Shown here piece by piece: positions 8,227-24,951 of a DNA stretch of 64,000 nucleotides. Source of the DNA: Chitinophaga pinensis (GTDB lineage: Bacteria; Bacteroidota; Bacteroidia; Bacteroidales; GCA-2748055); the NCBI GenBank assembly GCA_945863035.1, contig CAMAZH010000001.1, forward strand, positions 64,420-128,419, in the 5' to 3' direction. The position numbers and the translations under genes were made by a program. Within the stretch, counting starts at the first letter, position 1. The number at the start of each line of letters is the position of its first letter. The notes beneath the pieces were generated by a model, which saw only the letters and a program-made list of their open reading frames with translations, did no database searches and was not told where the DNA came from.

Positions 8227-8388
8227 AATATGCCGAGTGTTTAATAGGGTTTTAAACAGTTGAAAAGCATCATTGTACGATACTTCTTATAGTTTATCCA
8301 AAGGTAATGATATTCAAAGCCCTAAGTAATGCACTACTTGGGCATTATCTTGCACCAAATATACCTGGCTTCAAGTGAAATGTGTTTC

Positions 8389-10089
8389 TTACTTTTTGAT
8401 AATAAATTTTTCAGTCGAAATTTCATTACCAGTTTTTATCTGTAATAGATACATACCTTCCGGGAAGTCAGAGACGCTTATACTTGATGTATTTGTTACA
8501 GATTTGATTTTCCTGCCGCTGATTTCATAAATATGAATTTCATCTGCCTGCTTACTTATCCTGATATTATCATTAACCGGGTTTGGATAAATTGAGAAGG
8601 TTGAAGCTTTCTGTTTGTCGGCGATTCCGGTGCCTAATGAAAGTTTTTCAGTGCTTCCGCTATGCATATGGATATCAACAGCAATCTTGTTTGCTTCCCA
8701 AATGGCTTTTTTTTCAGGAAACCAGTTCAGGTCGCCAAGGGGGAGCCCTTCGATGGATGCGCTTAACAACTGGGGATTTTTGTATTTTCCGTTAAAGACA
8801 GGCCATGCCTGATTATATGACGGGTCGCCATCGAGATCCCAATGCCAGTTTGCCCATTTCGAAGCCGGAGGATACTGGTCGGAGGGGTAACCCATATCAC
8901 CGGTCTGGGTTGCGTAATTCATCCATGAAACCAGGGAGTCAGACATTTTATAAATTAGTTCGTCTTCCCATTGTGGATCTATATTTTCAAGGTTATTACC
9001 CAGCTGGAAATTCGGAAAACTTACTTTGTCATTGAATATGGCAGTTTCTCTTGAAACCCCGCTTGAGTCAACCGGCCAAACCCAGGGTAGCAGATAGAGA
9101 GGCGATTTCCCATCGGCGGCACCTTTGGTATTCAAATCGTTAAGAAGGGTAGTGAATCCCGGATTCCGGTATAGCATATTATACTGGATATATTGCACTC
9201 TTTCAGAGGGAAGCGTTTCACCAGGAATAGTATCGGCGAATATCAGTCCGACATTCGGAGCTGCAGCATCCATTGCAGGCAACGAGGTATTCCATGAACG
9301 CGGAACAAGCCGGGTTGCAACATCGAACATCAGGTTGTTGGTCCAATAGAATTCTTCTTCCCACACTCCCCAGTCTATCATGCATTTAACCAATGCGATG
9401 GTATTGTGGTTAAATTTTTCATAACCATGCTTGTTATGATTAAAATTGCTGTTGTGAATACCTGAACCAATGCATACAAAAGTGTTGTTTTCAACATAGA
9501 TGGTATCGTATCCTATGTCGCCATTACCATTCCAGTGATCAAAAACAAAGCCATCCCACAAACCGGTTCGATGTCCCTGCCTTACAACGAGATTATCGGT
9601 AAAGTAAGTCTTAGTAGAGGCTGAAGTGACTTTTATACCGTTTCCCTTGGAGATAGGGTCCAGAATACAATTCTGAATAATAATCCGGCCATTGTCCTTG
9701 CTCTGGTTTATACATTCCTGGGCAACGACACCGCCAAGGTCAGCATTCACGACATAAACGTTTTTAAGAGTAAAATCACCCTTGATATCAAACATTTTAC
9801 TGAATACAGCTCCTCCTGCATCGATGTTGGTTTGGAGGGTTGCGGGCATTTTTCCTCCGGAAGGTACTTCTCCGATGATCTGCAGATGGTAATCAACAAT
9901 TTCAATTATTTCATCCAGTTGATACCAGGATTCTGCTCTTAGCTGGTATATTTTGTTACCTCCGTTGGCTTTAATTGCAGCATTTAAGGTTCCAACTCCG
10001 GGCTCAACGATCAGAATGTCCTGAGAGCTGACATTCATGCAAAAAAACAATACCAGCAAGGCCGGGAAAAAATTTAGTTTTCTTTTCAT
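8389..10089 (-). CDS. T9SS-sorted beta-helix-like protein encoded directly downstream of a TonB-dependent transporter (function unknown; candidate surface glycan-binding protein or depolymerase)
   Basis: ORF 8389..10131 trimmed to the ATG at 10087..10089. The resulting N-terminus MKRKLNFFPALLVLFFCMNVSSQD aligns with MRKINSLFILLAAFMIQMNVSAQD of the paralogue at 57276. Rung-like repeats typical of right-handed parallel beta-helices: FTLKNVYVVNAD, IIIQNCILDP, TYFTDNLVV, IYVENNTFVCIG, FNHNTIALV, FYWTNNLMFDV. The C-terminal IYPNPVNDNIRIS..GMYLLQIKTG..KFIIKK matches a T9SS sorting domain. No lipobox Cys and no TPR/SusD-like character. Confidence 0.8.
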   Translation of the reverse strand: MKRKLNFFPALLVLFFCMNVSSQDILIVEPGVGTLNAAIKANGGNKIYQLRAESWYQLDEIIEIVDYHLQIIGEVPSGGKMPATLQTNIDAGGAVFSKMFDIKGDFTLKNVYVVNADLGGVVAQECINQSKDNGRIIIQNCILDPISKGNGIKVTSASTKTYFTDNLVVRQGHRTGLWDGFVFDHWNGNGDIGYDTIYVENNTFVCIGSGIHNSNFNHNKHGYEKFNHNTIALVKCMIDWGVWEEEFYWTNNLMFDVATRLVPRSWNTSLPAMDAAAPNVGLIFADTIPGETLPSERVQYIQYNMLYRNPGFTTLLNDLNTKGAADGKSPLYLLPWVWPVDSSGVSRETAIFNDKVSFPNFQLGNNLENIDPQWEDELIYKMSDSLVSWMNYATQTGDMGYPSDQYPPASKWANWHWDLDGDPSYNQAWPVFNGKYKNPQLLSASIEGLPLGDLNWFPEKKAIWEANKIAVDIHMHSGSTEKLSLGTGIADKQKASTFSIYPNPVNDNIRISKQADEIHIYEISGRKIKSVTNTSSISVSDFPEGMYLLQIKTGNEISTEKFIIKK

Positions 10090-10163
10090 AGTATTAGGTT
10101 TATAGTTAAATAAGAGTTTTGATATTTTCAATAAAATTTTTCCTGTATGCGAAATGCTCAGAA

Positions 10164-13124
10164 CTAAAAGCGGTATCGGATTCCGGTATCAAAAGTCCAT
10201 CCATATCGCTCAAGATAGGATGGTCTGGCATCTCCCCAATTTCTTGATTTTTCAATAAAATCATTCATATTGGCAATATTTCCGATTATTTCGAAGCCCG
10301 TAAATCTTTTTTTAAGCTTCTGAGTAAGCTGAAGATCCCAACGATAAAAGCTTTCTTTCATCGAGTACAGCTCTTTTAGCTGGTTATATCCGGTAAAAAT
10401 TTTACCATTGTACTGAAAGGATAACCATGAGTTAAATCCTTTACGGTTGAAGCCTAAAGATGCATTGACAATATGTTTTGGCTGGAAAAGCATAGGTCCG
10501 GTAATTGTGGAGTCAAATCTGACTTGTACCGGCCTGCCTCCCCCTGCCGGAACTATGTTCCTTTTTTCCGAAAACGGATATTGTGTTTCTGAATCTGTGT
10601 AGGTGTAATTTGTTGAAATAGTAAAGTGCTTGAGTACATTATGCAGGTACCAGAATGATGTTTGCACTTCCACTTCCAATCCTTTGATAAAAATGGGATA
10701 ATTGTGATTTTCTATCACACTCATGTTCACCTGGTCCAGGTCTCCGAATGGTTCAACCAAAGGATCTCCTTTCAAACGGGTATAACCTCTGCCCCAGATT
10801 TTGTTTTCAACGGTTTTGTAGAAGGCTCCAATTGAGACCAAACCGATTTTGTTCCCATGAAAGGTCATTTGCCCGTCATAATTCTTCCAGAATTCTGTAA
10901 GGATATCTGGATTTCTTGCCGTGTATGAAAATGGAGGAAATCCAGCATTGATAAATGTGTTGGGGGAAATCTGGTTCATGTCAGGTCTGCTCAGCGTATG
11001 GGTATATGCAAGATGCGTGTAAAAGGAGGGTGATGGTTTAATTCTTAGGTGGATCATCGGAAGCAGGAACTCATCGGAACGGTCTGCCTCTCTCGGGCTT
11101 CCGGGGATCGGCTCATAGATTGGATCAGGGAGACTGGGATTAAGAGCCATGTAGCCAGCCATAGAGGAATTTGTTGTTTCGTATCTGACCCCGGGCATTA
11201 TCATGAGCCATTTTCCGAGATTCAACTCTGTCATCAGGTAACTGGCGTAATATTGCTCTTTAATGTCCTGGTCATCCATAATGCAGCTGGAAATGTCCTG
11301 ACCGAACCCGAATCTGTCTTTAGCTCCGAAAATCGCCTGCCATACTTCTGGACCCTGGGCATAGTAGTAATCAGACAGATCCACCCAGGTATCTGTTATT
11401 TCGTTAAGCCTGCCGATATCGTATGTCCATCCAAAATCGTACCTGCCATCCAGGAAATTATCCAATTTGTTCTCCTTCAAGCCTATGGCCGACACTTCCT
11501 GGGATAGTCCTGATCTTACAATCCAATCAATTTTGTCATCCAGCATTTTCTTACCCTGATCATTGACGATAAGAGTCTGATTGCCGTTTGTGACATCCTG
11601 AACCCTGTTGCGGGTTCTGTGTGTTGCTCCGAATTTCAAATAACCGGTAACACCCTTGCCTAATTGATATGGAATTTCGATGTTTAAATATTCCGTGAGA
11701 TTATCCTCTTTCATTTTCCCGGTATATTGACCAAATGATGTCAGTTTCACATTCTGAAGAGAATCGCCGTTATCTGAAAATAACGGAATAATCTCAGAAG
11801 GATCCAACTTCTGATCATCATTGGTGAAGGTGTGGCCAACACTTGCTCCCTCATACATGTAGTTCCAGTTTCTGGATTGAGGATCATCCATTTTGCTGGT
11901 TGAATATGCCAGTCCGTAATCCAGTTCCATGTTCAGGAAATTCAATCTTGTTAAGCCGTTTAGTGCAGACTGCCAGATATTATTGTTTCTTAATGGATTG
12001 TCATGAAAATTGTAACTTACATCACCTTTCCCGGTTATATTGTAGTTTTTTGTCTGACGGTTATGATCATCTTTCGAATAATTGTAAATACTGAAAAGGG
12101 AGATGGTGGTTGATTTATGTGGGCGATAATCCATTGAGATCATGGCTGATCGCCTGTATTTCGTGGTCTGGATATTATTCAGGCTGGCTCCTGTCAGCAG
12201 TATTTCAACATCGTCGGATTTTTCAAGGCCATAACCGGCACTCATAGTCTGTGTGCTGCGGTTTACCCTTTCTGCATTAGCGGAGATAAAAACGCCTAAC
12301 TTTTTATTAAACAGCCGGTTGCTTATTTCAGCCTGCATTTTGTAATTTCCAAAGTAGTTATTCATGTTGTTGTATCCGCCCATGGCCATTACATTGGAGT
12401 GCAATCCGTCAGGCGTTTCTTTGAGCTTGAAGTTCACTGATCCGGCAACTGAATTTGCTTCCATATCAGGTGTAAGAGCCTTGAATACTTCTACACCTTG
12501 CAAGGCGTATTGGGAAATTCCCGACACATCAGTTTCACTGCCTGATCCCATTGATGCGGGCATTTTTATCCCGTTCAGGGTTACTGCGGTATAGCGTTGT
12601 TCCAATCCACGGATTACAATCGCGGTTCCTTCGCCGCCGCTCCTTATGACAGAGATTCCAGGAAGTCTGCCGATAGCTTCAACGGCATTAGCATCTGGGT
12701 TTTCCTGAAGACGATCGGATGACACAACATTTTTAATTGTATTGGAGTTAATCTGTTGATTACGGGCCCCAATCTGACCCTTTGCCTGTGCACTAACCAC
12801 TACTTCTCCAATTGTTTCGATATTTGCGTTTAGCGAAACATCAATATTCCGGGCTGAGCCTATTGCAATAGTATCCGAATGAAATCCGATAAATGAGTAT
12901 ACGAGGGTCGTCTTTTCGCCCGGAACAAGCAGACTGTATTTTCCATCGAGACCGGTAACGGTTCCTCGTGTGGTGCCTTTGATGACCACAGTGGCTCCAG
13001 GAAGGATATCTCCGGTTTCTTTATCCCTTACCGCACCAAAAACGCGAATATCGCCCTGGGCGTTCAAAATCAAATGAAAAAACATAAAAAAACCAAGTAA
13101 AGTAACTATTCGAAAATTCATCAT
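10164..13124 (-). CDS. TonB-dependent outer-membrane transporter with CarboxypepD_reg-like N-terminal domain (not obviously SusC-type)
   Basis: Signal peptide MMNFRIVTLLGFFMFFHLILNAQG. CarboxypepD_reg-like block: VRDKETGDILPGATVVIKGTTRGTVTGLDGKYSLLV. Plug motif: DRLQENPDANAVEAIGRLPGISVIRSGGEGTAIVIRGLEQRYTAVTLNG. A long barrel region follows. The C-terminus GWTFDTGIRYRF ends in Phe, as expected for an OM beta-barrel. Confidence 0.9.
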   Translation of the reverse strand: MMNFRIVTLLGFFMFFHLILNAQGDIRVFGAVRDKETGDILPGATVVIKGTTRGTVTGLDGKYSLLVPGEKTTLVYSFIGFHSDTIAIGSARNIDVSLNANIETIGEVVVSAQAKGQIGARNQQINSNTIKNVVSSDRLQENPDANAVEAIGRLPGISVIRSGGEGTAIVIRGLEQRYTAVTLNGIKMPASMGSGSETDVSGISQYALQGVEVFKALTPDMEANSVAGSVNFKLKETPDGLHSNVMAMGGYNNMNNYFGNYKMQAEISNRLFNKKLGVFISANAERVNRSTQTMSAGYGLEKSDDVEILLTGASLNNIQTTKYRRSAMISMDYRPHKSTTISLFSIYNYSKDDHNRQTKNYNITGKGDVSYNFHDNPLRNNNIWQSALNGLTRLNFLNMELDYGLAYSTSKMDDPQSRNWNYMYEGASVGHTFTNDDQKLDPSEIIPLFSDNGDSLQNVKLTSFGQYTGKMKEDNLTEYLNIEIPYQLGKGVTGYLKFGATHRTRNRVQDVTNGNQTLIVNDQGKKMLDDKIDWIVRSGLSQEVSAIGLKENKLDNFLDGRYDFGWTYDIGRLNEITDTWVDLSDYYYAQGPEVWQAIFGAKDRFGFGQDISSCIMDDQDIKEQYYASYLMTELNLGKWLMIMPGVRYETTNSSMAGYMALNPSLPDPIYEPIPGSPREADRSDEFLLPMIHLRIKPSPSFYTHLAYTHTLSRPDMNQISPNTFINAGFPPFSYTARNPDILTEFWKNYDGQMTFHGNKIGLVSIGAFYKTVENKIWGRGYTRLKGDPLVEPFGDLDQVNMSVIENHNYPIFIKGLEVEVQTSFWYLHNVLKHFTISTNYTYTDSETQYPFSEKRNIVPAGGGRPVQVRFDSTITGPMLFQPKHIVNASLGFNRKGFNSWLSFQYNGKIFTGYNQLKELYSMKESFYRWDLQLTQKLKKRFTGFEIIGNIANMNDFIEKSRNWGDARPSYLERYGWTFDTGIRYRF

Positions 13125-13196
13125 TATTGGGCAAATTATTAATTTGTATTATTTGACATACTGATACTATTCATTTTCTTACAGAGAATTGTTTAC

Positions 13197-16100
13197 TTAG
13201 GGATTAAACAGTATTTTTTTCATAAGCAGGCTATCCCTTGTTTTTAATTGATAAAAATAGACACCTGCCGGAACGTGTTGGCCTGAAAAGTTTGTTCCAT
13301 CCCATGAGCATTGATACAATCCTGGTTCATGGTTCTGGTTGACCAGAGTATTTATAACCTGTCCGGTTAAATTAATGATGTTTATTGTTACCATATCTTT
13401 TTTGGCAATACGGTAACTGATATGGGTAAGAGTGGAAAAGGGATTTGGGTAATTCTGAGCCAAATCAGCTTTATCGCCAAACTTTAAAACATCACTGACG
13501 CTTTGAATAACACTTGTATTGTGTCGACCGGGACTGCCTCCATTTTCACCGCTTGCTTTCCAGTTTGAACCTATTTCATTATCGCTATGAGGGTTTGTAA
13601 GTTCAATGCTCGATCCATTTACTGGTATTTCAGGCCATGGTGCAGTAATTCCATAGTTAACAAAGTCGATCAAATCCATTTTGCTGTTATAGAGTTCAAC
13701 TGATTCCCCTGTGGAAGAAAGTCCAAAATCAAAATTTCCGATTATATTATTTATTTCAGGGTGAGTTTCTTTAAAGCTGTTTGTATCGCGGCAAATGACA
13801 AGAAAACCGGAAGGCTGCATCAGGATTTTTGCGGGAAAGCTAAACCGGTGGTCTGAGGGTGCATCCTTAAATATCCAATTACTTATATCAGCAGTCACAT
13901 CAGAATTATTATACAGTTCTATCCAGTCCTTGCTGTCGGCGATTTCATCAGAGATATATTTGATTTCGTTGATTACAATATTGTTAGGATTGAATTCTGA
14001 AAATTCGAAGAAGGCAGTCAGGTTTGAGATCGTTTTAACATCTGCTTTTCGCGTTGGTGATGTATTTCCATCTGACCATCTTGTGAATTTGTGATTAGGA
14101 AAAGTCATGGCTTTAAGGGTAATAGGTACCTCCGGAAAGTATTTGCCGCTCCATGGGTATGCCGGGCAGATAATTGAGTTGATTCGGACCATACCCATGG
14201 TCGTATCCGAAACTGAAATTGTAATTGATTTCTGCCGGCTCAACTTAAACTTCATCATCAGATGGGTAAACTGATAATTTGGGCGGTTTGTGGCAAATTC
14301 TGTAATTATAGATATCCCATTATACCATTTTTCAGTGCTTTGAGAAAGCAATTGGTAATAACGGGGGATTTCAGGTTCGTATAGTTTTACAAAATCCTCA
14401 AGAAGGAGGTTCACTCTTTCAGGAAGGAAAGTGGAATTCAGATGATCGCAAAAGGTATTAATAAAGGAATTCCTGAACTCTAGGTTCTTTAACAGATTTC
14501 TTAAAAGAAATGTTGAGTGCGGTGGATTAGGCCAATCCGGACCATTTTCTTCCGTTGCAAGTTCGAGAGTATTGTTCCTGAAAAACAATTCTCCATCCTC
14601 AACTTCAAATTCGTATAATAAACCAAAACCAAAATCTGTATCATACATGAGCCATCGCCACTTACTGCCTGGCTCATTGCTCTTCCACCATTTGATGTTA
14701 TTTCCTGGCCAGTCTGTGTTATCGAAGAAGATTTGTGCAACAGAATAGTCAATGAAGTTATTTATATCAATATTCTGGCTGATATAATTGTAGGCGGCAC
14801 TGTCAGATAAATCATTCAGGCTGATATAATCAATCAGCTCTTTGTAATTGTCAACCTTACCTTCAATGACCACAATTGAGCTATTGTTTGGAACATATCC
14901 CAGGATGTTGATACTATCGGGTTTTAGTTTAGTATGAGAAGCGATAAAATTCCGGTTGATTTTTTCTTGGATGTTTCTGATTCCCCAATAGTTTCCATTC
15001 AGATATACCACTGCAGGACGAAACATGGAGAGTTCCAAATCCATGTTATTCCTTAAAAGATTTTGCATGAAGCAATCTCTGAGCATTGTATTCTGAACGT
15101 CATTCCCTGAATTGCGGAGTACAATGCTATTGAAATTGATTAAATCTTTGTTATTGAATATGTTATAATCAATAGACTGTTGGCCGTATTTCGATCTGGC
15201 CATAACAGATAATGATTTATATGGATAAATACGGGTAAGTCCTCCATGAACCTGAATTCCTGCATCCAGACTGAATCCATGGATGCCATCTGGTTCAAAA
15301 AATTCAATATGTGCAGGCCTTTCCCAATTCTGGAAGAGATTGGACTGCTCGTGCGGATTTGTTAATACAAAAATTCCGAAATCTGCATTATAGAGGTTTT
15401 CCGGATCGGTTGTTACAGAAATTGCAGCAAAGGAATTATGCTCGTTTATAAAAAAAGATTTAGTTGCAGTCCTACTGGGCAGGAGATTGGATGAAAATGC
15501 TTTTGCGCGTATTGTACTTGTTAAGTCAACAGATAATGGAGATGTATATAAGTTTGATTGTTCTGATGGATCGCTGCAATCGGTTGTATAGTAGATTCTG
15601 CTTTCATGGGCAGGGGAAGATAGTGATACTTCAATTGAATGATTGTAAAACCCTTCACGTAAAGAAAAAAGTGGGGTTGTGCTTCTTCCCGGAAAGACAT
15701 TTTCCGAATTAGCAGAGCCCGGAGTAGGCTCAAGGAAATAAACCAAGCTGTCGGTGTTAGCTGATAGCCTTCCAAAAGAAACATCAGCTTCAGATACTGT
15801 GGTTTTAACTGAATCAATTATTTGGCCGGATGGATTTGTTAAAAACAAGTTTTCGCCTGAGGATTTTAAGGAAAAGTTGGTGTGTAGTTCGTTTATTTTC
15901 CTGTATATTCTTGAAGCAGGTATAGGTTCTTCAACTACGTTGTTTGGCAGCTGCCAGCGCACAGCCAGGTTATCACCGCCAATATTTTCTTTCATCAAAG
16001 CTTCAATATAATAGTATTTTCCTGCTTCAAGTCTTATTTTTATTGATTTCTGTTCGGAGTATTTTTCCCATTCGAGCGGGTTTGTCCAACTTGGGACTCT

Positions 16101-16691
16101 GGCTATTTCTCTGGCATTGAAGGAATTCATATCAGGGCTGAGTCGCAATGAACCATTGTCATCACTCGAAATCCAAAAAGTATAATAGCCGGTTAATGGG
16201 GCCAATAGGTATCCGAAAATACGCTGACCATAGTAATCTCCAATATTTGTTGGAGAATGAAAAAAATCATTTATTATTCTTTCTTCGGATGGCGTGTCAG
16301 GAAAATTCGGATTGCTAAGGAGGTATTCAATACGGTCTCCCTGAATATTGTAAAAAAACTGAGATATAAGTCCGTTTTGCATTTGTCCTGAAGAGGATTT
16401 GCGATTTTTTCCTGAAGCCCATACCAACAGAAATTCTCCGGGTTCTAAAACAAAACTGGGAAAAATCCATTTGAAAAGATTGCTGCTTTCGTCACTAAGT
16501 GCAAAACCTTCAAGGTTTAACGATCCTATATCCTTGTTATGGAGTTCTACCCAGTCTTCATAATCTCCGTCTTCGTCTTTAATTATACTTACATTCAAAG
16601 GTGCAACTTCATTAATTACAAGATTTTGCGTGTATGCAAATATATTATTTAACAGAAAGAGCAAAAGCAAGTAAATTATTTTATAAATCAA
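13197..16691 (-). CDS. CotH kinase-like protein with two lamin-tail (LTD) domains, a PA14-like domain and a T9SS sorting domain
   Basis: The start is TTG (caa on the plus strand at 16689..16691), followed by a hydrophobic signal IYKIIYLLLLFLLNNIFAYTQ. LTD-like: LVINEVAPLN..DGDYEDWVELHNKD..LEPGEFLLVWASG and IVINEIKYISDEIADSKDWIELYNNSD. PA14-like: QRIFGYLLAPLTGYYTFWISSDDNGSLRL..YYYIEALMKENIGGDNLAVRW. CotH-like: VLRNSGNDVQNTMLRDCFMQNLL..VVYLNGNYWGIRNIQEKINRNFI and DNTDWPGNNIKWWKS..WRWLMYDTDFGFG. Sorting domain: NYPNPFSTLTHISY..GVYFYQLKT. Confidence 0.8.
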   Translation of the reverse strand: MIYKIIYLLLLFLLNNIFAYTQNLVINEVAPLNVSIIKDEDGDYEDWVELHNKDIGSLNLEGFALSDESSNLFKWIFPSFVLEPGEFLLVWASGKNRKSSSGQMQNGLISQFFYNIQGDRIEYLLSNPNFPDTPSEERIINDFFHSPTNIGDYYGQRIFGYLLAPLTGYYTFWISSDDNGSLRLSPDMNSFNAREIARVPSWTNPLEWEKYSEQKSIKIRLEAGKYYYIEALMKENIGGDNLAVRWQLPNNVVEEPIPASRIYRKINELHTNFSLKSSGENLFLTNPSGQIIDSVKTTVSEADVSFGRLSANTDSLVYFLEPTPGSANSENVFPGRSTTPLFSLREGFYNHSIEVSLSSPAHESRIYYTTDCSDPSEQSNLYTSPLSVDLTSTIRAKAFSSNLLPSRTATKSFFINEHNSFAAISVTTDPENLYNADFGIFVLTNPHEQSNLFQNWERPAHIEFFEPDGIHGFSLDAGIQVHGGLTRIYPYKSLSVMARSKYGQQSIDYNIFNNKDLINFNSIVLRNSGNDVQNTMLRDCFMQNLLRNNMDLELSMFRPAVVYLNGNYWGIRNIQEKINRNFIASHTKLKPDSINILGYVPNNSSIVVIEGKVDNYKELIDYISLNDLSDSAAYNYISQNIDINNFIDYSVAQIFFDNTDWPGNNIKWWKSNEPGSKWRWLMYDTDFGFGLLYEFEVEDGELFFRNNTLELATEENGPDWPNPPHSTFLLRNLLKNLEFRNSFINTFCDHLNSTFLPERVNLLLEDFVKLYEPEIPRYYQLLSQSTEKWYNGISIITEFATNRPNYQFTHLMMKFKLSRQKSITISVSDTTMGMVRINSIICPAYPWSGKYFPEVPITLKAMTFPNHKFTRWSDGNTSPTRKADVKTISNLTAFFEFSEFNPNNIVINEIKYISDEIADSKDWIELYNNSDVTADISNWIFKDAPSDHRFSFPAKILMQPSGFLVICRDTNSFKETHPEINNIIGNFDFGLSSTGESVELYNSKMDLIDFVNYGITAPWPEIPVNGSSIELTNPHSDNEIGSNWKASGENGGSPGRHNTSVIQSVSDVLKFGDKADLAQNYPNPFSTLTHISYRIAKKDMVTINIINLTGQVINTLVNQNHEPGLYQCSWDGTNFSGQHVPAGVYFYQLKTRDSLLMKKILFNP

Positions 16692-16752: not shown

Positions 16753-16793
16753 GATAAATAAAATAGTGAGGAAGAGTTGCCCCTTCCTCACTA
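16753..16793 (-). terminator. Rho-independent terminator-like hairpin downstream of the 1219-aa gene
   Basis: Perfect 11-bp stem: tagtgaggaag at 16764..16774 pairs with cttcctcacta at 16783..16793. The loop is 8 nt (agttgccc). On the minus strand the hairpin is followed by TTTTATTTAT (complement of 16754..16763). It starts 11 nt after the stop at 16805..16807. Confidence 0.7.
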
Positions 16794-16804
16794 TAATATT
16801 GATT

Positions 16805-19800
16805 TTATTCAACTACAAATTTGGATATCATGGACTCGTTATTCTTAACGATCTTAAGAAGATACAAGCCTTTTCCATATTTAGCAGCATTAACGGAGGT
16901 TACATTATCTGAACTTTTTAAGTTCATAAGCAACTTACCATCCATCGAATAAATCTGTATCAAAGCATTACTTGTTTCAGTAATATTCAGGACATCAGAA
17001 GTCGGATTCGGGTAAATCCCTACTTTACTAAAGGTTTCGGAATTTACACCAATAGTGGAAGGCTTAAGAATAATCTTGACAAGATATTTCTTAACCGTCA
17101 TGCCGTCTTCTGCTGTTACAGTTATTGTTACAGTTCCATTAACATTCACAATGCTTACCGATGCGTTTGGATCATTCGTAACAGCAGTAGCAACTGTATC
17201 AGCTCCCTCTGTTAATTCAACTCTGTAGGATGCTGTTGCAGGGGCGAAATTACTCAGTTGCACACCTCCAATCAAGAGTGAAGAAAGCGTAGCGTCATTA
17301 TTTCCGAGGTACCCTTCATATGAAAACACCATATTGTTCAGGTCGAATCCGCCTGCCGCATCGTTAATAACGAAAGATAAAATGTGATCGCCTTTCAGCA
17401 GGTTCATGCTTGTATCTAATGACCATGGTATAAAATCAGCAGGGGCGGGGAGTTCAACCTGAGATAGCACCGGACTTCCGTCGATCAGTACACTGAACTT
17501 TTCATTATACCATCCATGAATGGTGGCGAAATTGAAGGTGACATTATACAATCCTGATTCAACCACCCGGATGTCGAAGTTTAATTTGTCATCGACATCG
17601 GTCCAGCCTACCTGGTATCTGCCATTACCGCCGCCAATATCAACACCTTCATTTGGACGATATCCACCGCCATTGTTGCTGGCATCCTTGTCTTCATAAC
17701 CAACGCCCTGGCCTCCATCGTTGAAGTTTTCAAATTCGAGAATTACGGTTTCGTTGGAAACAACAGGTAATACAGTTATGGGTCTTGCGTTTGAGAACCG
17801 GATATAATCGAAGGCAATTTTTCCTGAGTCTGCAACATCAACAGCGTCAAGGCGGAATTGAGCTACAATGAAGCCGGGGTTCCAATTATTAACGCCTGTG
17901 AGGTTTACGAGAACATCCCGGTATTGATTGTCGTTGGGAACTAACGGGAAGGTTATTACCGAAATATTGTAATCTTTATCAAACACAAGAATCTGTCCTC
18001 TGTCATCTGCAGTCTCGTTTTTAACACCAATGGAAAGCCATTTAATATCTCCAACGGTCCATCCTGTAAGTTGGTCGCCCCATACATATGGATCTGCTCC
18101 TGTAACTTCTATTACCATTTTTCCATCTGCAATTGAAGCGTTTGCACTGTTCGCTCCAGCAATACCCCATCCTGTTGCGTTATCAAAATTCCATGCAGTG
18201 GTTTGTTCAACAACACTGATTGATAGTGTGCCTTTTGTGCCCGATCCATCATTTGCTGTTGCAGTTACAGTTACATTACCTGGTAAAATCCCGGTTAGTA
18301 ATCCGTTAGCATCAATTGATGCAACACTTTCCGGATCAACAGAGAAGGTAACATTTTTATTAGTAGTATTCAATGGCATTACTTCAAACAATATTTGAAG
18401 CTTATTTCCCGTGGAAACAATTGTTCTGCCATCTTGCCCCGTCAATGAAATTGAACCAGCCGGCATTTGGTCTTTAGAAACAGTTATTGATTTGTTGCCT
18501 GAAATTCCTGAACCATCTTTGGCTGTTGCAGAAACAAGAACAACACCATCCGAAACTACCGTCAAAACCCCGGTATTAGCATCGATTGTTGCAAAAGCAT
18601 CATTATCAACCGACCATGTAACCGACTGAGCTGAAATGGCTGGTGTCACCGCTGCGCTTAGCGTTACTGTGCTACCAACACCATAAACAGCATCAAATGG
18701 GCTCGATACCTGAATGGACACGGCTGGTGGACGTTGGGAAACGAATTTATAGAAATCCACATAATAAGTACCCGCATCTACTCCTTTTGGCCCGTCGAAT
18801 CTGATCTCGTTGATATATTCAGGAATACTTCCCCACCAGCTTTTCGGATCATTCAGATCGATCATAACATCTGTAAATTCAGTAGCATTTGTTGGAATAT
18901 TCACTCGGTTAAGTCCATACCAGTTACCATTGTGTATTGCTGTGAACCCAACCCCATTTCCAGATGATTCATTTTTTATTCTCATCCAGAAAAAGTTATT
19001 GCCTTTTAGTGGCCAGTAAACCATGGAATCAGACCATACGTTCGGCTCTTGATATGGAAGGCCAGAGGTAATGTTCATTATCATCATTTCATCTGCAAAG
19101 GATACAGTTCCGGCTGTTTTCTCCAGATTCAGTCCCGTGTTGGCCGGATCATTAAATTCCCATGCGGTTCTGATTTCATAGGAATCAAGTACAGTAATCT
19201 CGATAGAACCAATAACATCAGGTTTTATCTTGGATGCTGCATACACAGTAACTGTGCCTGCTGTAAGGGGGGTCAGTTTACCATCTACACTAATTGTGGC
19301 AATGTTTTCATCACTTACTGACCAGATTACACCGGTTTTGATATAAGCCACAACGCTTTCTTTAAACTTTACATCAGCCTTTAATTGAATCAGGTGGTCC
19401 AGTCCATATGCGGTAGTATAGGGAGAAGAAATTGCTACTTTTGAAACGGAATCTGCAAAAGGAAAGTCTTCTACAAACCGATAAAAATCAATGAAATACT
19501 GACCTGTGTCAACTCCTTTAGGTCCGTCGAAACGTATATCACTCAGACTGTCAGGGAAACTGCTCCACCAGTTTTTCGGTTCCGTAAGATCAATTATAAC
19601 ATCCCTGAACATACTATCATTTGTTGGGATTTTTACCCGGTTAAGCCCATACCAGTCTGGTCCGTGGGTTGCTGTAAAACCAACATCATTACCTGCAGAT
19701 TCATTTTTAATCCGCATCCAGAAATATTTCAGATCGCCCATTTTCCAGTTATCCATAGTTTGGGTCCATACACATGGCTCTTGCCATGGAAGGCCAGAGG

Positions 19801-20464
19801 TGATGTTCATTTTCATCATTTCATCTGCAAAGGATGCCGTTCCGGCTGTTTTCTCCAGGTTTAATCCCGTGTTGGCCGGATCGTTGAAATCCCATGAGTT
19901 CATCTGGGGAACAGCATATACATCACCAATATTAAATAGTTCCAGGTTGTCAAAATATGTAGTAGCTTCTGCGGTAGTATTGCCCCACTCATCGCTGAAA
20001 TATACTTCTACCTTTGAAAAAGAGATATCCGTCAATGCATTGTTAAACTCCGCAATGCTCCATTGACCGGACGGGAAGGTTGTATTGCACCATCCTTCCG
20101 CCTTGGTAACATTATCTGCACTTACGAATTTCAGATAAACATATGATGGCCGTTCTTTAGGATAAACATTAATGCGGGCTTTACTTTTCCCATGAAGTGT
20201 GACCTCCTGGTCAAAAACGAATTTAATCCCGCTGTTCCAGTTTCCAGCCTGGCGCTTACCCATGTAAACCTTATCGGAGTTATTGATAACTGCTTTGCCA
20301 GGATTATCAGCAATACCATGCTCTACGTGGCCCCACGCCGACTCGAGTGCATATCCACCGGAAGGCAATGGTTTTTCAAAATCCATCAGCACATTGATAT
20401 GCTGAGCATGCAGCATAAATATCGCTGATATCAGCAAAGAAATAGTAATTGTGAGTTTTTTCAT
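16805..20464 (-). CDS. Large non-catalytic T9SS-sorted surface protein: three copies of an unrecognised ~140-aa module, Big_2-like Ig domains, CBM6/35-like module, cadherin-like beta-sandwich
   Basis: Signal peptide MKKLTITISLLISAIFMLHAQ. Repeated module at residues 190-331, 434-575 and (diverged) 757-890. Big_2-like segments: TVTVYAASKIKPDVIGSIEITV, VLVSATAKDGSGISGNKSITV, VTVTATANDGSGTKGTLSISV. CBM6/35-like: ILEFENFNDGGQGVGYED..YQVGWTDVDDKLNFDI. Cadherin-like beta-sandwich: NDATLSSLLIGGVQLSNFAPATASYRVEL..VTAEDGMTVKKYLVKI. Sorting domain: IYPNPTSDVLNIT..GLYLLKIVK. I saw no recognisable catalytic domain. Confidence 0.85.
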   Translation of the reverse strand: MKKLTITISLLISAIFMLHAQHINVLMDFEKPLPSGGYALESAWGHVEHGIADNPGKAVINNSDKVYMGKRQAGNWNSGIKFVFDQEVTLHGKSKARINVYPKERPSYVYLKFVSADNVTKAEGWCNTTFPSGQWSIAEFNNALTDISFSKVEVYFSDEWGNTTAEATTYFDNLELFNIGDVYAVPQMNSWDFNDPANTGLNLEKTAGTASFADEMMKMNITSGLPWQEPCVWTQTMDNWKMGDLKYFWMRIKNESAGNDVGFTATHGPDWYGLNRVKIPTNDSMFRDVIIDLTEPKNWWSSFPDSLSDIRFDGPKGVDTGQYFIDFYRFVEDFPFADSVSKVAISSPYTTAYGLDHLIQLKADVKFKESVVAYIKTGVIWSVSDENIATISVDGKLTPLTAGTVTVYAASKIKPDVIGSIEITVLDSYEIRTAWEFNDPANTGLNLEKTAGTVSFADEMMIMNITSGLPYQEPNVWSDSMVYWPLKGNNFFWMRIKNESSGNGVGFTAIHNGNWYGLNRVNIPTNATEFTDVMIDLNDPKSWWGSIPEYINEIRFDGPKGVDAGTYYVDFYKFVSQRPPAVSIQVSSPFDAVYGVGSTVTLSAAVTPAISAQSVTWSVDNDAFATIDANTGVLTVVSDGVVLVSATAKDGSGISGNKSITVSKDQMPAGSISLTGQDGRTIVSTGNKLQILFEVMPLNTTNKNVTFSVDPESVASIDANGLLTGILPGNVTVTATANDGSGTKGTLSISVVEQTTAWNFDNATGWGIAGANSANASIADGKMVIEVTGADPYVWGDQLTGWTVGDIKWLSIGVKNETADDRGQILVFDKDYNISVITFPLVPNDNQYRDVLVNLTGVNNWNPGFIVAQFRLDAVDVADSGKIAFDYIRFSNARPITVLPVVSNETVILEFENFNDGGQGVGYEDKDASNNGGGYRPNEGVDIGGGNGRYQVGWTDVDDKLNFDIRVVESGLYNVTFNFATIHGWYNEKFSVLIDGSPVLSQVELPAPADFIPWSLDTSMNLLKGDHILSFVINDAAGGFDLNNMVFSYEGYLGNNDATLSSLLIGGVQLSNFAPATASYRVELTEGADTVATAVTNDPNASVSIVNVNGTVTITVTAEDGMTVKKYLVKIILKPSTIGVNSETFSKVGIYPNPTSDVLNITETSNALIQIYSMDGKLLMNLKSSDNVTSVNAAKYGKGLYLLKIVKNNESMISKFVVE
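18740..19897 (-). repeat. Intragenic duplication (period 732 nt) encoding two copies of the unrecognised module plus the intervening Ig-like segment
   Basis: Copy A is 19472..19897 and copy B is 18740..19165. Plus-strand 19044..19167 aligns to 19776..19899 at an offset of exactly 732 nt, with about 14 mismatches in about 124 nt counted by eye. Similarity is lower elsewhere in the unit. The antisense shadow ORFs 18810..19019 and 19506..20066 in the track show the same repeated peptide (FVGIFTRLSPYQ). Confidence 0.85.
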
Positions 20465-20880
20465 AGTGATTTGATTTTAGTTTAAAAAATAAATGATATT
20501 TAATTTCTGTTTTGTTGTTTTGATTGGATTATTTTCATATTTGTTTTATTGTTAAGAATTACCGAATGTTTACAGGTTTTTTTGAAGGCTTCTACTTATA
20601 AAGTAAAACTTAATATTTTTGGTGGACTTTTGTTTTTCTTCCAATCTTTTTTGAAAGAGTCTTAATTAATACAAATCCCTTGTAATTGTAAAGTGAAATA
20701 TTTTTGCATAGAGGGGGTAAAGCGACTCTACTGCATTGATATGCAGATAGATAGTTTGTGTAGTATAGGTCGGGATTTCGGATCGGTGGAAGTCGATTCT
20801 GGAGAAACCAGAATATAATTTGGGCCGTGATAAAAATTCGGGATCACAGTTCTGTATTCCGTATTCCGGAATTAGGCAAG

Positions 20881-23800
20881 TTATTTTCTGAGATTCTTTA
20901 TAAATTCACTTGGAGATATACCTTTTTCCTTTTTGAACATTGTAGAGAAATATGCGGGATTGGACACCCCGACTTTTATACAAATTTCTGTAATTGGACA
21001 GTCTGTCTGCTGCATGATTTCTACAGCTTTCCTAACACGATAAGTGTTAATATAGGCATTTGGGGTAGTATTAGTAACAGACAAGAATTTTCTGTGAAAA
21101 TTTGAACGGCTCATATTCATTTGCATGGAAAGATGTTCAACGTTCAGTCCTTCATTTTCGATATCCCTTTCCAGTATCTGGTTTAATGTGTTTACAAATG
21201 ACTGATTTTCATGGCTGATGAAATTCATCTTTAAATTATGGAAAAGTCCCTGTTGAAAAAGAAGATGCATTTTTTCGCGCCGGTCAAACAGATTATCAAC
21301 AATTGCGATCAAATAGTCTGGATCAAAGGGCTTACTGATATAAAAGTCAGCTCCTTTTTTTAATCCTTCAATCTGGTTTTCTAATTCAGAACGTGCAGAG
21401 AGGAGAATAAAAGATATGTGATTCAAGACCTCATTATTCTTGATGTTGTTGCAAAGCTCCAGTCCGCTCATTTCAGGCATCATTACATCACTGATAATAA
21501 GATCGGGTAATTCCTGTTTTATCTTTTTCAGACCCTCAAGCCCGTTATAGGCCGAGATAACCGAGTATCGGGTGCTTAGAATATTTGCAATCAGGTTATT
21601 CAATTCGATATTATCTTCAACAATAATAATTGAATAAGCTCTTTTTGTTTCTTCAGAATCGGTAAGTTCTTCTTTTTTGTTAATCTGCGGAATTACAGTG
21701 ACAAATTCTTTTCTGAGGCCCGTCATTTCATCTTCTGTCCAAACACCAGTATCCAATGGTAAAATAAAAGAAAATACCGAACCGAAATTCTTTTGGCTCT
21801 CCACACGGATATCTCCCTTGTGCAAAACAGACAGTCTTCTTGAGAAATTAAGACCGAGCCCTGTGCTGGAATAGTCAGAATAGAATTTATTGTTTGTGCG
21901 GTTATATCTTTCAAAAATACTGCGTAATTGATTTATGTCAATCCCTGATCCATTATCCTTAACGGAAATTTCCAAATATCCGGCTTGAGAAATGGGAAAA
22001 GTCATTTCCTTCAGTTTTTCATAATTCTTTTGAGCTTCTTCTGTGGAAATATTATTTACAAAAACTTCGATAAATCCTTTTTGTGGAGTATATTTTATGG
22101 AATTACTGATAAGATTCGACAAGATTATTTCCAGCTTTTCCGGATCAAAAATCATCTTAGAAACAGAATCAGATGGTTTAGAGTAGGTCAGACTAATCTT
22201 TTTAAGATTGGAATAATGAATAAAACCTTTGATTATTCTTTCTATTTCATCAGAAACAGAAGCTTCGATAAGGTCAATTTTCACGGTGTCGCTTTCCAAC
22301 TCGCGAAAATTGAGGATTTGGTGGATTAGTTTTAGTAAGCGTTCTGTATTATACTTTAAACTGGCATACACCTCAAGAGATTTATCATCTCTTTTCAACT
22401 GTTTTGAGATCATGTAAACGAGACCGGAAATAATGCTTAACGGAGTTTTTAACTCGTGTGAAATATTTGCGAAAAACCTCAGTTTCATTTGATGAACTTC
22501 CTTTTCCCGAATCCTTTCGTTATGCTCAACTTCAAGATTCTTTTTATAGAATTTCGCCCTTAACATAAGTCTGAAAAGTACTAAAAGAACCATGATGAAC
22601 ACAAGACTATACAAAACAAAGGCCCACCACGTCAACCAGGGAGCATGTTTAATACGAACCGACAGGTTCACAGGATTAGACCATTCTGTATTATTGGTGC
22701 AGGATCTTACCTTGAAGGTATAGCGACCAGCGGGTAAATTTGAGTAGGCGGCATAGGTGGCATCTCCAACACTTTGCCATTTCTCGTCAAAACCTTCCAG
22801 CATGGTTTCGTATTCAACTTTACTCTCTGCACCATAATGAAAGGCGATATAGTCAATCCGAAATGATTTTTGATTATGGTTCAGGGACAGACTGGCTGTA
22901 TAAGATATGCTCTTTTCCAGCAGATGCTTGCTGCCACCAGGCAGAACTGGTTCATAGTTTATCCGCAAGGATCGTAAAACCACTCCGGTAAGAGGAAGCT
23001 CATTTACTAATATTTTCTCAGGTTTGAAATGTGTTACACCTTCATTACCCCCGAAGTAGATCATCCCTGTTTTATCTTTATAAACAGCTTTCTGGTGAAA
23101 TTGCTGATTATTTATTCCTTCATTAATATAGTAATTTACAAAATTGTTTTTTTTCTCAAAGCAGGATAGTCCGTATGAGGTGCTGATCCATAGGTTTTTG
23201 GCTGAATCTTCAATAATGCCGTAAATATCATTACTGGGAAGTCCGTTATTCCTGTTAAGCACATTTATTTCATTATTGTGCAAATCAAATCGGATCAGTC
23301 CCCAGTTAAAGTTGCCAATCCAGAGAATACTGTCACTATCAACATAAATGGTGCAAAACTCTTTTGCCTTCCATTGTTTGAGCTGCTTGTCGGGAGATAA
23401 TTCACTAATCTTGTTTGTGGCTGGCGAAAATATGTACAACCCTTCGAGAAATGTACAGATTAAAAGATCGTTGTGGTTAAAGGGAATAATCTGTCTTACA
23501 TTAGGCCCAAAATCCATCATTCGTTTTTCGAAGATCCCATTTTCATCAAAAATGAGAAGACCGCTTCCGGTGCCCGCATATACTTTGCCATCAGTAGTAG
23601 CTGTAAGTGAAACAATTTCACCTCCCCCGGATGGGAAATTCAGATTTCGAAAGGTGGATGTGGAAGGATTGAATATTTGCAGTTTATCGGGCTGACCTAC
23701 CCATATTTGTCCCTGTCTATCGCAATACAAGGCAGAAACATGGTTATCAGAAAGAAGGCTGTTGTTCTTGGTAAAGTGTCTTGTCCGTTCTCCTGAGCGG

Positions 23801-24951
23801 TCAATTACAATCAACCCATCATAGCGTGTTCCAAAAAACAATGATTCTTCTTTATCGGAGATGATACAATTCGTAAATTTCCCATCGGTTGCATTTAATA
23901 TTGATTTTTCAGGATTGAAACATCTTCTTTGATGATAGGATACAATAATTCCTTTATCAAAAGTTCCTATCCAGATATTTTGCCGTTTGTCAATAAAGCA
24001 ACATGTAAGGCTGTTGGATGATAAGCCGGAATTGTCGCCGATAACATAATGATTAACATCGTCATTGTGCGGATTATAAGTAAACAAACCATCTTTATAT
24101 GTGCCAATAAGAATCTGTCCTGATCCATCTTCCTGTAAAAATCGTATATCCTTGTTTTTAAGTGCCCAAAGGCTGCCGTATTTTTCGTCGGGGATTTTCT
24201 TATTGCTGATAAAGTCATATAAAAATAGTCCTTGATTAGTTCCAATCCAAAGCATATCCCTCACACATTTAATCGAATAAACAGTGATATTGGCAGGTAA
24301 TCCTATTTCTTTTGGATTAACATATCGCGAAAAAATTCCTGAAGCAGGATTTACGAGTGCAATGCTTTTATCTTCTTGTAAAATCCAGATTCCATAATCT
24401 GAATCTGAAAAGATATAATGGAACCTGAAAGTATCTTCTGCCAGTTCCAATCCTCTGAATTGGAGCATTTCCTCATCAAATACTGAAAGTTTTTCAAATA
24501 GATAATTACTATAATAATTGCCCTGCCAGCTACAGTTATTGTTTTCCCATTGTCCGGTATTGATCTGCATCATTTCCTCTAAACGGTTATTATAATAATG
24601 CTGTCCCTTGTTTGTCGAAACAAAGATGCCTTTTTCACCTGCTCGTAATGAATTAATATAATCGTGCGAAATCACATTCTCTTTATCAGGGTCAAACAGA
24701 AAATGCTCAAATTTTTGCCCGTCGTAACGATTCAGTCCACGAGCTGTTCCAATCCACATATAGCCAAGTTCGTCCTGACAAATTCCTTTAATTTGCAGAT
24801 TTGACAGCCCGTCTTTTAATGTGATACTTTCAAATACGGCAAAAGAACCTGATTCTGTCAGGTTTTGGGAAAAGGATGTTCCTGATATTCCACAAATAAT
24901 GGTTATCCAAAGGATTAGCTGTTTTTTCAAATTAGAAAATTCTGTCATCAT
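20881..24951 (-). CDS. Hybrid two-component system sensor kinase/response regulator with AraC-type DNA-binding output (HTCS, PUL-type regulator)
   Basis: N-terminal signal/anchor. Long periplasmic region with repeated propeller-type sensor motifs: MWIGTARGLNRY, LWIGTNQGLFLY, IWIGTFDKGI, LWISTSYGLSCF. TM segment WWAFVLYSLVFIMVLLVLF. H-box FFANISHELKTPLSII. HATPase: VKDNGSGID..GLGLNFSRRL. Receiver: IIIVEDN..LIISDVMMPEMSGLEL..ISKPFD. AraC HTH: SRSNFHRKF..NPAYFSTMFKKEKGISPSEF. Confidence 0.92.
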   Translation of the reverse strand: MMTEFSNLKKQLILWITIICGISGTSFSQNLTESGSFAVFESITLKDGLSNLQIKGICQDELGYMWIGTARGLNRYDGQKFEHFLFDPDKENVISHDYINSLRAGEKGIFVSTNKGQHYYNNRLEEMMQINTGQWENNNCSWQGNYYSNYLFEKLSVFDEEMLQFRGLELAEDTFRFHYIFSDSDYGIWILQEDKSIALVNPASGIFSRYVNPKEIGLPANITVYSIKCVRDMLWIGTNQGLFLYDFISNKKIPDEKYGSLWALKNKDIRFLQEDGSGQILIGTYKDGLFTYNPHNDDVNHYVIGDNSGLSSNSLTCCFIDKRQNIWIGTFDKGIIVSYHQRRCFNPEKSILNATDGKFTNCIISDKEESLFFGTRYDGLIVIDRSGERTRHFTKNNSLLSDNHVSALYCDRQGQIWVGQPDKLQIFNPSTSTFRNLNFPSGGGEIVSLTATTDGKVYAGTGSGLLIFDENGIFEKRMMDFGPNVRQIIPFNHNDLLICTFLEGLYIFSPATNKISELSPDKQLKQWKAKEFCTIYVDSDSILWIGNFNWGLIRFDLHNNEINVLNRNNGLPSNDIYGIIEDSAKNLWISTSYGLSCFEKKNNFVNYYINEGINNQQFHQKAVYKDKTGMIYFGGNEGVTHFKPEKILVNELPLTGVVLRSLRINYEPVLPGGSKHLLEKSISYTASLSLNHNQKSFRIDYIAFHYGAESKVEYETMLEGFDEKWQSVGDATYAAYSNLPAGRYTFKVRSCTNNTEWSNPVNLSVRIKHAPWLTWWAFVLYSLVFIMVLLVLFRLMLRAKFYKKNLEVEHNERIREKEVHQMKLRFFANISHELKTPLSIISGLVYMISKQLKRDDKSLEVYASLKYNTERLLKLIHQILNFRELESDTVKIDLIEASVSDEIERIIKGFIHYSNLKKISLTYSKPSDSVSKMIFDPEKLEIILSNLISNSIKYTPQKGFIEVFVNNISTEEAQKNYEKLKEMTFPISQAGYLEISVKDNGSGIDINQLRSIFERYNRTNNKFYSDYSSTGLGLNFSRRLSVLHKGDIRVESQKNFGSVFSFILPLDTGVWTEDEMTGLRKEFVTVIPQINKKEELTDSEETKRAYSIIIVEDNIELNNLIANILSTRYSVISAYNGLEGLKKIKQELPDLIISDVMMPEMSGLELCNNIKNNEVLNHISFILLSARSELENQIEGLKKGADFYISKPFDPDYLIAIVDNLFDRREKMHLLFQQGLFHNLKMNFISHENQSFVNTLNQILERDIENEGLNVEHLSMQMNMSRSNFHRKFLSVTNTTPNAYINTYRVRKAVEIMQQTDCPITEICIKVGVSNPAYFSTMFKKEKGISPSEFIKNLRK

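Follow-up and report, generated by a model that had tools for sequence, protein, structure and literature searches.

The 64,000-nucleotide stretch analysed here, which we call the window (Chitinophaga pinensis, GenBank assembly GCA_945863035.1, contig CAMAZH010000001.1, positions 64,420 to 128,419 of the forward strand), encodes on its minus strand a 1219-residue protein in which three copies of one module are interspersed with Ig-like domains and followed by a C-terminal sorting domain (CTD) of the type IX secretion system (T9SS). The open reading frame (ORF) of this protein, hereafter the target, is real, and its translation agrees with the consensus strings given for the repeats in an earlier interpretation made from the letters of this DNA (the sequence-only reading); the same sequence is protein P0001 of the library that we searched. 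The module belongs to a real and widespread family that has no entry in Pfam or NCBIfam. By sequence it is set apart from the carbohydrate-binding module (CBM) families represented in Pfam, in NCBIfam and among solved structures, and is a credible candidate for a new CBM family.

Architecture of the target protein

The target has the two features of a T9SS type A cargo, a Sec signal peptide and a type A sorting domain (Table 1). Its leader ends ...FMLHA|QH and its first 30 residues contain no cysteine, hence no lipobox; cleavage at the site chosen by eye would leave glutamine as the mature N-terminus. The sorting domain scores 53.4 bits against PF18962 (cut-off 27, E 3e-14) and 45.9 bits against TIGR04183 (cut-off 23). 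Three mutually related stretches between the modules match Pfam Big_2 (E 1e-25), and residues ~896-1048 can be assigned to CBM6 by their similarity to characterised CBM6 modules in the PDB, the Pfam CBM_6 score of 25.3 bits (E 2e-5) falling just under the cut-off of 28.9. Searches of the whole protein against Pfam, NCBIfam and PDB sequences found no catalytic domain. The sequence-only reading had anticipated the Big_2-like spacers, a CBM6/35-like module, the sorting domain and the lack of an apparent catalytic domain, and all four hold. Its cadherin-like beta-sandwich at residues ~1049-1147 does not, since this region yields only a sub-threshold DUF5018 match and weak Ig-like similarity.

Self-comparison of the target by blastp recovers the three repeat copies that had been reported, including the divergence of the third. 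Modules 1 and 2 (M1, M2) are 67% identical over 146 residues (E 4e-72), and module 3 (M3) is 30% identical to M1 (E 6e-18) and 23% identical to M2 (E 1e-12). The DNA of M1 and M2 is 75% identical, with different codons at 30 of 98 identical residues, which makes the duplication an old one, with the protein sequence under constraint. M3 represents the canonical form of the family, with W-x-F, GW, DPY, KNET, PND, RLD and DYIRF motifs, and M1 and M2 form a derived subtype common only to the target and two relatives, P0002 and P0003. No other ORF of the window contains the module, as judged with the family hidden Markov model (HMM).

The N-terminal beta domain has no Pfam match even at E 10, and its best PDB match, 8qx6_A (a 'PKD domain-containing protein', 165 aa), is non-significant at E 0.35. 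Among the 150 best members of the module family it is found only in P0002 and P0003, the closest relatives of the target, at 64-66% identity. The idea that this domain is a fourth, diverged module was rejected: a --max search with the family HMM detects no match in it, and hhalign returns a probability of 0.3%. It could be another diverged CBM-like domain.

Table 1. Features of the target gene, its protein and its flanks (positions in the window; aa, amino acids)
Feature	Position	Residues	Strand	Basis or remarks
Target gene	16805..20464	1219 aa	minus	ORF list and translation; stop codon 16805-16807
Signal peptide	20402..20464	1-21	minus	MKKLTITISLLISAIFMLHA|Q; signal-peptidase-I type; cleavage site judged by eye
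N-terminal domain, no family match	19904..20401	22-187 (166 aa)	minus	
Module copy 1 (M1)	19460..19903	188-335	minus	blastp self-comparison; family HMM i-E 8e-33
Big_2 Ig-like spacer 1	19172..19459	336-431	minus	Pfam Big_2; phmmer against the other two spacers E 1e-8 and 3e-7
Module copy 2 (M2)	18728..19171	432-579	minus	67% identical to M1
Big_2 Ig-like spacer 2	18473..18727	580-664	minus	Ig-like domain of phage tail tube protein 8hqz, E 7e-9
Big_2 Ig-like spacer 3	18203..18472	665-754	minus	best Pfam Big_2 stretch 680-743; PDB 7quz E 1e-9
Module copy 3 (M3)	17780..18202	755-895	minus	of the three, M3 fits the family HMM best (i-E 3e-38)
CBM6 module	17321..17779	~896-1048	minus	phmmer against PDB 2y8k/5la2/5g56, E 1.6e-15, residues 906-1045
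Beta-rich domain of ~100 aa	17024..17320	1049-1147	minus	sub-threshold DUF5018 (26 bits, cut-off 38); weak similarity to Big_2 spacers
T9SS type A C-terminal sorting domain	16808..17023	1148-1219 (match 1150-1218)	minus	PF18962, TIGR04183
Upstream AT-rich intergenic region	20465..20880		minus	416 nt between stop codon of the sensor gene and start codon of the target
Hybrid two-component sensor (HTCS)	20881..24951		minus	Pfam Reg_prop, Y_Y_Y, HisKA, HATPase_c, Response_reg, HTH_AraC
Intrinsic-terminator-like hairpin	16763..16794		minus	12-14 bp GC-containing stem, then T-run TTTTATTTAT; begins 11 nt past the stop codon
Downstream genes that accompany module proteins elsewhere	3853..16691		minus	neighbours kept in loci L001/L002, L005 and L089 (see text)
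CotH/LTD/PA14 T9SS protein	13197-16691	1164 aa	minus	
TIGR01782-type TonB-dependent transporter	10164-13124		minus	
T9SS protein	8389-10131	580 aa	minus	
Protein with ~600-aa domain	3853-8226	1457 aa	minus	~600-aa domain without family, CBM6/35, PA14, T9SS CTD

A widespread module family

An exhaustive search of 1.84 billion cluster representatives with a profile of the three target copies retrieved 212 protein clusters at E<=1e-3, 60 of them at E<=1e-10, with the target itself as the top match. Members carry one to five copies, in tandem or spaced by ~90-aa Ig domains, and the domain boundaries drawn by the module HMM are sharp over ~150 proteins; the family consensus reads W-x-F..(E)GW...G.L...TG.DPY....KN.T....PND..Y..Y..DL...W.G.I..LR(L/I)DP...G...DYI.F. 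The carriers include T9SS proteins of Bacteroidota, S-layer and discoidin proteins of Paenibacillus, and a roseophage baseplate protein. The Paenibacillus carriers, among them WP_188993014.1 ('discoidin domain-containing', Paenibacillus nasutitermitis) and WP_087566072.1 ('S-layer homology domain-containing', Paenibacillus sp. MY03), extend the family past Bacteroidota. Other module proteins bear public names such as 'Ig-like domain-containing protein [Bacteroidota bacterium]' (MEN8203869.1) or 'hypothetical protein', and we found no paper that describes the module in bacteria. A scan of genome contigs with the full target protein as query returned no relatives.

The sequence-only reading had called the repeat unrecognised and had accepted that its proposal would fall if the repeat were confidently assigned to a known CBM or DUF family; no such assignment emerges from Pfam or NCBIfam. 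When 40 diverse modules were run singly against Pfam, no match was significant (best E 0.0017), no family was matched by more than two of the 40, and M1 had no match at all; families without a threshold match include CBM_4_9, CBM_6, CBM_11, CBM_17_28, CBM64, CBM96, HL_N-beta and DUF4979. NCBIfam gave nothing in the module regions of the target. Pfam HL_N-beta, which is seen in four homologues, was tried as an identity for the module and rejected: it is matched by none of the 40 isolated modules, those of the homologues P0004 and P0008 included. A profile of the 40 modules searched against the 177,635 distinct sequences of the PDB had a single significant match, 8gtc_M; the next was chondroitinase ABC, whose match (E 0.07) is confined to the last strand. 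This profile left unmatched every CBM family that has a solved structure, CBM67, CBM84 and CBM70 included, and also 8qx6.

8gtc_M is the megatron protein of roseophage vB_DshS-R4C, and its residues 488-626, which match the module profile at E 3e-6 over positions 3-138 of 143, are the sole sequence relative of the module with a solved structure. Six of the 40 modules, M1 not among them, also match phrog_2589 ('tail protein', best E 4.9e-9). These significant, full-length profile matches place the module in one family with the R4C domain and phrog_2589, and, judged from them, the module and the megatron domain are homologous. The proposal of a candidate new CBM family stands as regards the lack of a Pfam or NCBIfam family and the predicted jelly-roll fold, and has to be qualified by the precedent in the R4C domain.

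Given the 40-sequence alignment, AlphaFold models M1 as a nine-strand beta-sandwich or jelly-roll (pLDDT 83.7, pTM 0.80; all five models above 81); with only the three target copies aligned, the model was mediocre (pLDDT 71). A Foldseek search of the PDB with the M1 model, a check that the sequence-only reading had proposed for a single repeat, returned 110 matches at E<=1e-3, the best at E ~1e-5 with TM 0.5-0.7 and identities that do not exceed 17%. Nearly all of the top matches are CBMs or CBM-like domains of carbohydrate-active enzymes: CBM70 4d0q, which binds hyaluronan, CBM29 1gwm, CBM4-2, CBM28, CBM11 and CBM8, as well as the N-domain of chondroitinase ABC (2q1f), xanthanase 6fhj and a GH50 N-terminal module (4bq3). 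The model predicts for the module the discrete, independent fold that CAZy expects of a CBM, and its resemblance to known CBMs is one of fold class and not of family membership.

Domain partners and gene neighbourhoods of the family

A Pfam scan of 42 full-length homologues found a T9SS CTD in 22, Big_2 in 20, CBM6 in four and CBM35 in three. Single or few homologues carry GH5, GH28, a right-handed beta-helix or CEMIP/G8, Hepar_II_III_C (heparinase II/III), SASA, a GDSL esterase or WbsX, and SLH, RHS and CDI-toxin contexts also occur. The other property that CAZy asks of a CBM, location within or appended to a carbohydrate-active enzyme (CAZyme), is thus seen in homologues and not in the target, which has no catalytic domain. 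This mix-and-match use of domains is the pattern seen for CBMs, and it makes a single ligand for the whole family unlikely.

The loci of relatives were found by exact-protein look-up. P0002, 57% identical to the target, lies in locus L001 in the order glycoside hydrolase (GH) family GH3, a CBM6/PA14 T9SS protein, P0002, a CotH protein, GH43 and a GH78 rhamnosidase. P0009 (locus L005) is accompanied by a GH63-like protein and CBM6/PA14 T9SS proteins. P0008, 27% identical and from a Bacteroidota metagenome-assembled genome (MAG), lies in locus L089 in the order TonB-dependent transporter (TBDT; 39% identical to that of the window), a 575-aa T9SS protein (31-34%), P0008, a protein combining a domain without assignment with CBM6, PA14 and a T9SS CTD, and a GH106 fragment. 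The locus of P0004 (L003) contains sulfatases, GH106 and the rhamnose mutarotase gene rhaM; on JGI 3300003272, contig Cyano_1000135, positions 3064-19504, the five-module P0004 stands between two sulfatases and GH106, with sulfatase fragments nearby. The surroundings of P0004 suggest a role for some of the family in using glycans that contain rhamnose and carry sulfate. The check named in the sequence-only reading, whether the module recurs in other T9SS proteins next to TBDTs, comes out positive: 22 homologues have a CTD, and at least one module protein, in L089, is found beside a transporter. Rhamnosidases are present in four of the five informative module loci, and together with the recurring gene set they argue for a role in glycan use and, weakly, for a rhamnose-containing substrate.

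The window as a glycan-utilisation region

The window encodes two HTCS, an AraC-type regulator, two TBDTs, two GH106, two GH43, GH95, GH3 (with CBM6 and malectin) and GH2 proteins, a GH127/GH76-like and a DUF4185-like protein, a CotH/LTD/PA14 protein, and eight proteins with a T9SS CTD; no por, gld or spr gene of the T9SS machinery was found in its 64 kb. Both transporters match TIGR01782 (the Xanthomonas/Caulobacter type) over the barrel and SusC only over the N-terminal ~150 aa, and no SusD-like gene is present in the window. The window is a large glycan-utilisation region and not a canonical polysaccharide utilisation locus (PUL). Its regulators are the HTCS at 20881-24951 (minus), a second HTCS at 48589-52722 (plus) and the AraC-type protein at 53139-54080 (plus), which suggests at least two or three sub-loci under separate regulation, every one with a TBDT, a T9SS partner and a GH106 to itself.

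The target gene stands apart from its neighbours in the way the sequence-only reading had described, with a 416-nt gap towards the HTCS gene and its own terminator, a hairpin with a T-run. The gap presumably contains a promoter; a scan for sigma-70-type sites gave 13, against 16 expected from shuffled sequence, and so no excess. The HTCS upstream is the likely regulator of the locus.

Directly downstream of the target, the CotH protein combines PA14, chitobiase-C/Fn3-associated and CotH kinase-like domains with two lamin-tail domains, and its counterpart in L001 (13090-16623) is also directly downstream of the module protein. Used as an anchor, it led to 80 species-representative loci (best 47% identity, in an uncultured Bacteroidetes MAG), none of which has a module within 10 kb; the pairing of CotH protein and module is thus confined to close relatives, namely the window and L001/L002. 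Relatives of the CotH protein are frequent in MAGs assigned to Bacteroidota, Balneolales, Verrucomicrobiota, Chloroflexota and further groups, with soda-lake sediment as the source of many.

The transporter that follows forms a pattern with the T9SS protein after it: a TBDT and, directly after it, a ~565-580-aa T9SS-CTD protein, in the order 10164-13124/8389-10131 (minus), 54204-57179/57276-58967 (plus) and, in L089, within 207-5014, each time without SusD. The two T9SS partners of the window (580 and 563 aa) are paralogues with 51% identity; they look beta-helix-like by eye, and the CTD is their sole recognisable part. Their transporters have a carboxypeptidase-regulatory-like N-domain and a TIGR01782 barrel, not that of SusC. 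The TBDT and its ~575-aa T9SS protein may be a conserved pair that replaces SusC/D.

A domain of ~600 aa occurs three times in the window, stand-alone at 25145-26923 and 39838-41685 and, in the N-terminal part of the 3853-8226 product, fused to CBM6/35, PA14 and a T9SS CTD (all minus). It matches no Pfam, NCBIfam or PDB sequence, and homologues with 28-49% identity lie beside module proteins in L089 (~9995-11722), L005 (~5788-7701 and 8624-10516) and L001 (~3211-5130). It may be a new catalytic family of glycoside hydrolases or lyases. Two further minus-strand genes encode a 735-aa protein (30657-32864), with only sub-threshold GH127 and GH76 matches, and a 429-aa protein (38552-39841), with a sub-threshold DUF4185 match and a start that overlaps the stop codon of the upstream 615-aa gene by 4 nt; both products are probably divergent glycoside hydrolases.

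Proposed function and alternatives

We propose that the target is a non-catalytic, multivalent glycan binder exported by the T9SS. The beads-on-a-string protein would cross the inner membrane by Sec and leave the cell by the T9SS, and would then probably stay attached to the outer surface of its Bacteroidota cell or be released from it; a type A CTD is compatible with either outcome. Its three modules and CBM6, spaced by Ig domains, would hold a branched heteroglycan near the cell by avidity, and the neighbouring GH106, GH43, GH95, GH2 and GH3 genes make rhamnose, arabinose or xylose probable constituents of this glycan. Once captured, it would be cut by the T9SS-secreted enzymes of the locus, the TBDT would import the fragments, and the adjacent HTCS would sense them and probably control expression. 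The repeats, the domain layout, the family with its spread, the predicted fold class and the recurring gene neighbourhood are established by the analysis. We hold the overall reading, in which we infer carbohydrate binding, surface display, ligand and regulation, with moderate confidence; carbohydrate binding by the module, taken by itself, seems fairly likely, and a rhamnose-containing ligand is a tentative suggestion that we regard as rather unlikely. Of the T9SS-displayed multivalent glycan-binding scaffold of the sequence-only reading, the Sec/T9SS cargo without a catalytic domain and the CBM-type predicted fold are borne out, and display and glycan binding are retained as proposals. A more ambitious form of the proposal is correspondingly more doubtful: the module would found a CBM family that spans Bacteroidota T9SS proteins, Paenibacillus S-layer proteins and roseophage baseplate proteins and that binds a rhamnose-containing heteroglycan, sulfated in some lineages, and the target would be the capture component of a SusC/D-independent uptake system made up of T9SS binders and enzymes, a Xanthomonas-type TBDT with its ~575-aa T9SS partner, and the ~600-aa putative enzyme family.

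Several observations weigh against the glycan-binder proposal. The likeness to CBMs is generic, as the same fold is found in the gingipain adhesin domain, in phage fibres and tail proteins and in the complex I assembly factor CIA30. The most conserved residues, in the first and last strands, look like core or structural positions, with no obvious aromatic platform, and the diversity of catalytic partners points either to a polyspecific family or to some function that does not depend on the substrate. The phage domain that is the sole structural sequence relative owes the name 'carbohydrate-binding' to topology only. A small activity could be hidden in the N-domain of 166 aa or in the ~100-aa domain that precedes the CTD. 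A CBM number in CAZy that has neither a Pfam model nor a structure would escape the searches made here. The 416-nt gap and the strong hairpin that bracket the target gene leave its co-transcription with the transporter unsupported.

Some of these points lend themselves to other explanations. The modules could be outlying representatives of a CBM family that CAZy already lists, or of a recent InterPro or DUF entry, which would make the target one more T9SS protein with several CBMs. New CBM families appear frequently (for example the CBMxx/yy of Cf-SGBP, bioRxiv 10.1101/2023.09.07.556657, and several 2026 papers), the fold neighbours of the module are CBMs, and isolated weak matches among the 40 modules, to CBM11, CBM64, CBM17/28, CBM6 and Mann_GBD_bact, reach E 0.002-0.03. 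Against this, none of the matches is significant and none of the Pfam or NCBIfam families is shared by more than two modules, the phage megatron is the only PDB chain that the 40-sequence profile brings below E 0.07, and source annotations never name the module; we consider a known family improbable. Alternatively, the target could act in adhesion or as a matrix protein, exported by the T9SS and placed in a glycan locus by chance, its modules being structural or adhesive beta-sandwiches for protein-protein contact, cell-cell contact or surface attachment. The fold of the gingipain cleaved-adhesin domain (4itc), phage tail fibres and CIA30, the structural look of the conserved residues, the lack of a catalytic domain in most homologues and the presence of some in RHS/CDI-toxin or S-layer proteins would all fit such a role. 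What speaks for glycans instead is the consistent linkage of the module, in cis with GH5, GH28, lyases, esterases and CBM6/35 and in trans with glycan-degrading genes at four independent loci, together with the bona fide CBM6 of the target itself; phage baseplate domains of this type, moreover, are commonly regarded as binders of surface polysaccharide (PMC10276861). To a purely adhesive role we assign a low probability.

A cryptic enzyme, with a new small activity such as a lyase or esterase in the N-domain or the module and the other domains targeting it, is very improbable. The N-domain has no match and is conserved in P0002 and P0003, lyases and hydrolases with a jelly-roll fold exist (PL7, GH16), and the locus has other unannotated domains that are probably enzymes. 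Domains of 140-166 aa are small, however, when jelly-roll enzymes usually have at least 200 aa; up to five module copies per protein are typical of binding and not of catalytic domains; the N-domain occurs in only two of 150 family members; and no catalytic family matches the target. The multivalent glycan binder is our preferred reading.

Glycan binding by the module, if real, would mean a further CBM family. It would also provide a handle on the substrate of an unannotated gene set conserved in uncultured Bacteroidota (module protein, TBDT, T9SS protein of ~575 aa, ~600-aa domain and rhamnosidases), which seems able to function in the absence of SusC/D, and would link bacterial glycan-foraging modules with the receptor-binding domains of phage baseplates. 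New CBM families are described regularly, so that a candidate family is unsurprising, though it is a biochemically testable kind of claim; non-catalytic surface proteins with repeated new CBMs are a known concept, of which Cf-SGBP is an example, and the gain is incremental in this respect. The SusD-less pair of TBDT and ~575-aa T9SS protein, together with the ~600-aa domain, may equal the main finding in interest.

Comparison with known systems

The sequence-only reading had compared the target to SusE and SusF, and as a functional analogy this can be kept: the proposed role is likewise multivalent, non-catalytic capture of glycans at the surface next to an outer-membrane transporter. The analogy does not extend to membership, since both features by which it can be tested, a lipobox cysteine and a SusC/SusD neighbour, are missing. 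SusE and SusF have an N-terminal lipid anchor where the target has a T9SS CTD, their domains are unrelated to those of the target, and the target lies near TIGR01782-type TBDTs, with a hairpin before the next gene.

In its export the target resembles the multimodular T9SS proteins of Bacteroidota, such as the cellulases of 'Ca. Paraporphyromonas polyenzymogenes' (PMC5831590) and CHU_1279 of Cytophaga hutchinsonii (PMC12016534). These too are reported to be long CBM- and Ig-like-containing proteins whose T9SS export is an alternative or complement to SusD-type capture; they carry known CBMs, catalytic domains or both, whereas the main module of the target is unclassified and the target has no catalytic domain.

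At the level of the single module, the predicted fold, the length of ~140-150 aa, the use in several copies and the fusion to CAZymes resemble the Type B beta-jelly-roll CBMs (CBM4, 6, 11, 28, 29 and 70), from which the module differs in having no family-level sequence match: structural identity does not exceed 17%, and Pfam matches (CBM_4_9, CBM_6, CBM_11, CBM_17_28) are sporadic and non-significant. Residues 482-629 of the R4C megatron were labelled a 'carbohydrate-binding domain' from their CtCBM11-like topology, with no binding experiment (PMC10276861). Unlike the modules of the target, the R4C domain occurs once, as an insertion within a phage baseplate protein and not in a T9SS surface protein, and its deposited model is backbone-only.

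Cf-SGBP of Christiangramia forsetii is built from two Ig-like modules and four duplicated copies of CBMxx, a beta-sandwich that was unclassified at the time. This non-catalytic protein of the cell surface was shown to bind laminarin (bioRxiv 10.1101/2023.09.07.556657). It differs from the target in being a lipoprotein encoded in a canonical SusC/D PUL and in having a proven ligand, laminarin, whereas the target is a T9SS cargo with no lipobox and no SusC/D. The two have no sequence relationship, and the module profile does not match 8qx6. We take that entry, which the PDB names only 'PKD domain-containing protein', to be the crystal structure of CBMxx, as an unverified guess. The likeness lies in the overall design, an elongated Bacteroidota surface protein of Ig-like modules and duplicated CBM copies (47-84% identical in Cf-SGBP) encoded in a glycan-utilisation locus, and extends to structural neighbours, since a GH50 N-terminal module (4bq2 for Cf-SGBP) is also among the Foldseek matches of the target module. 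By analogy, then, we regard Cf-SGBP as the closest functional precedent of the target.

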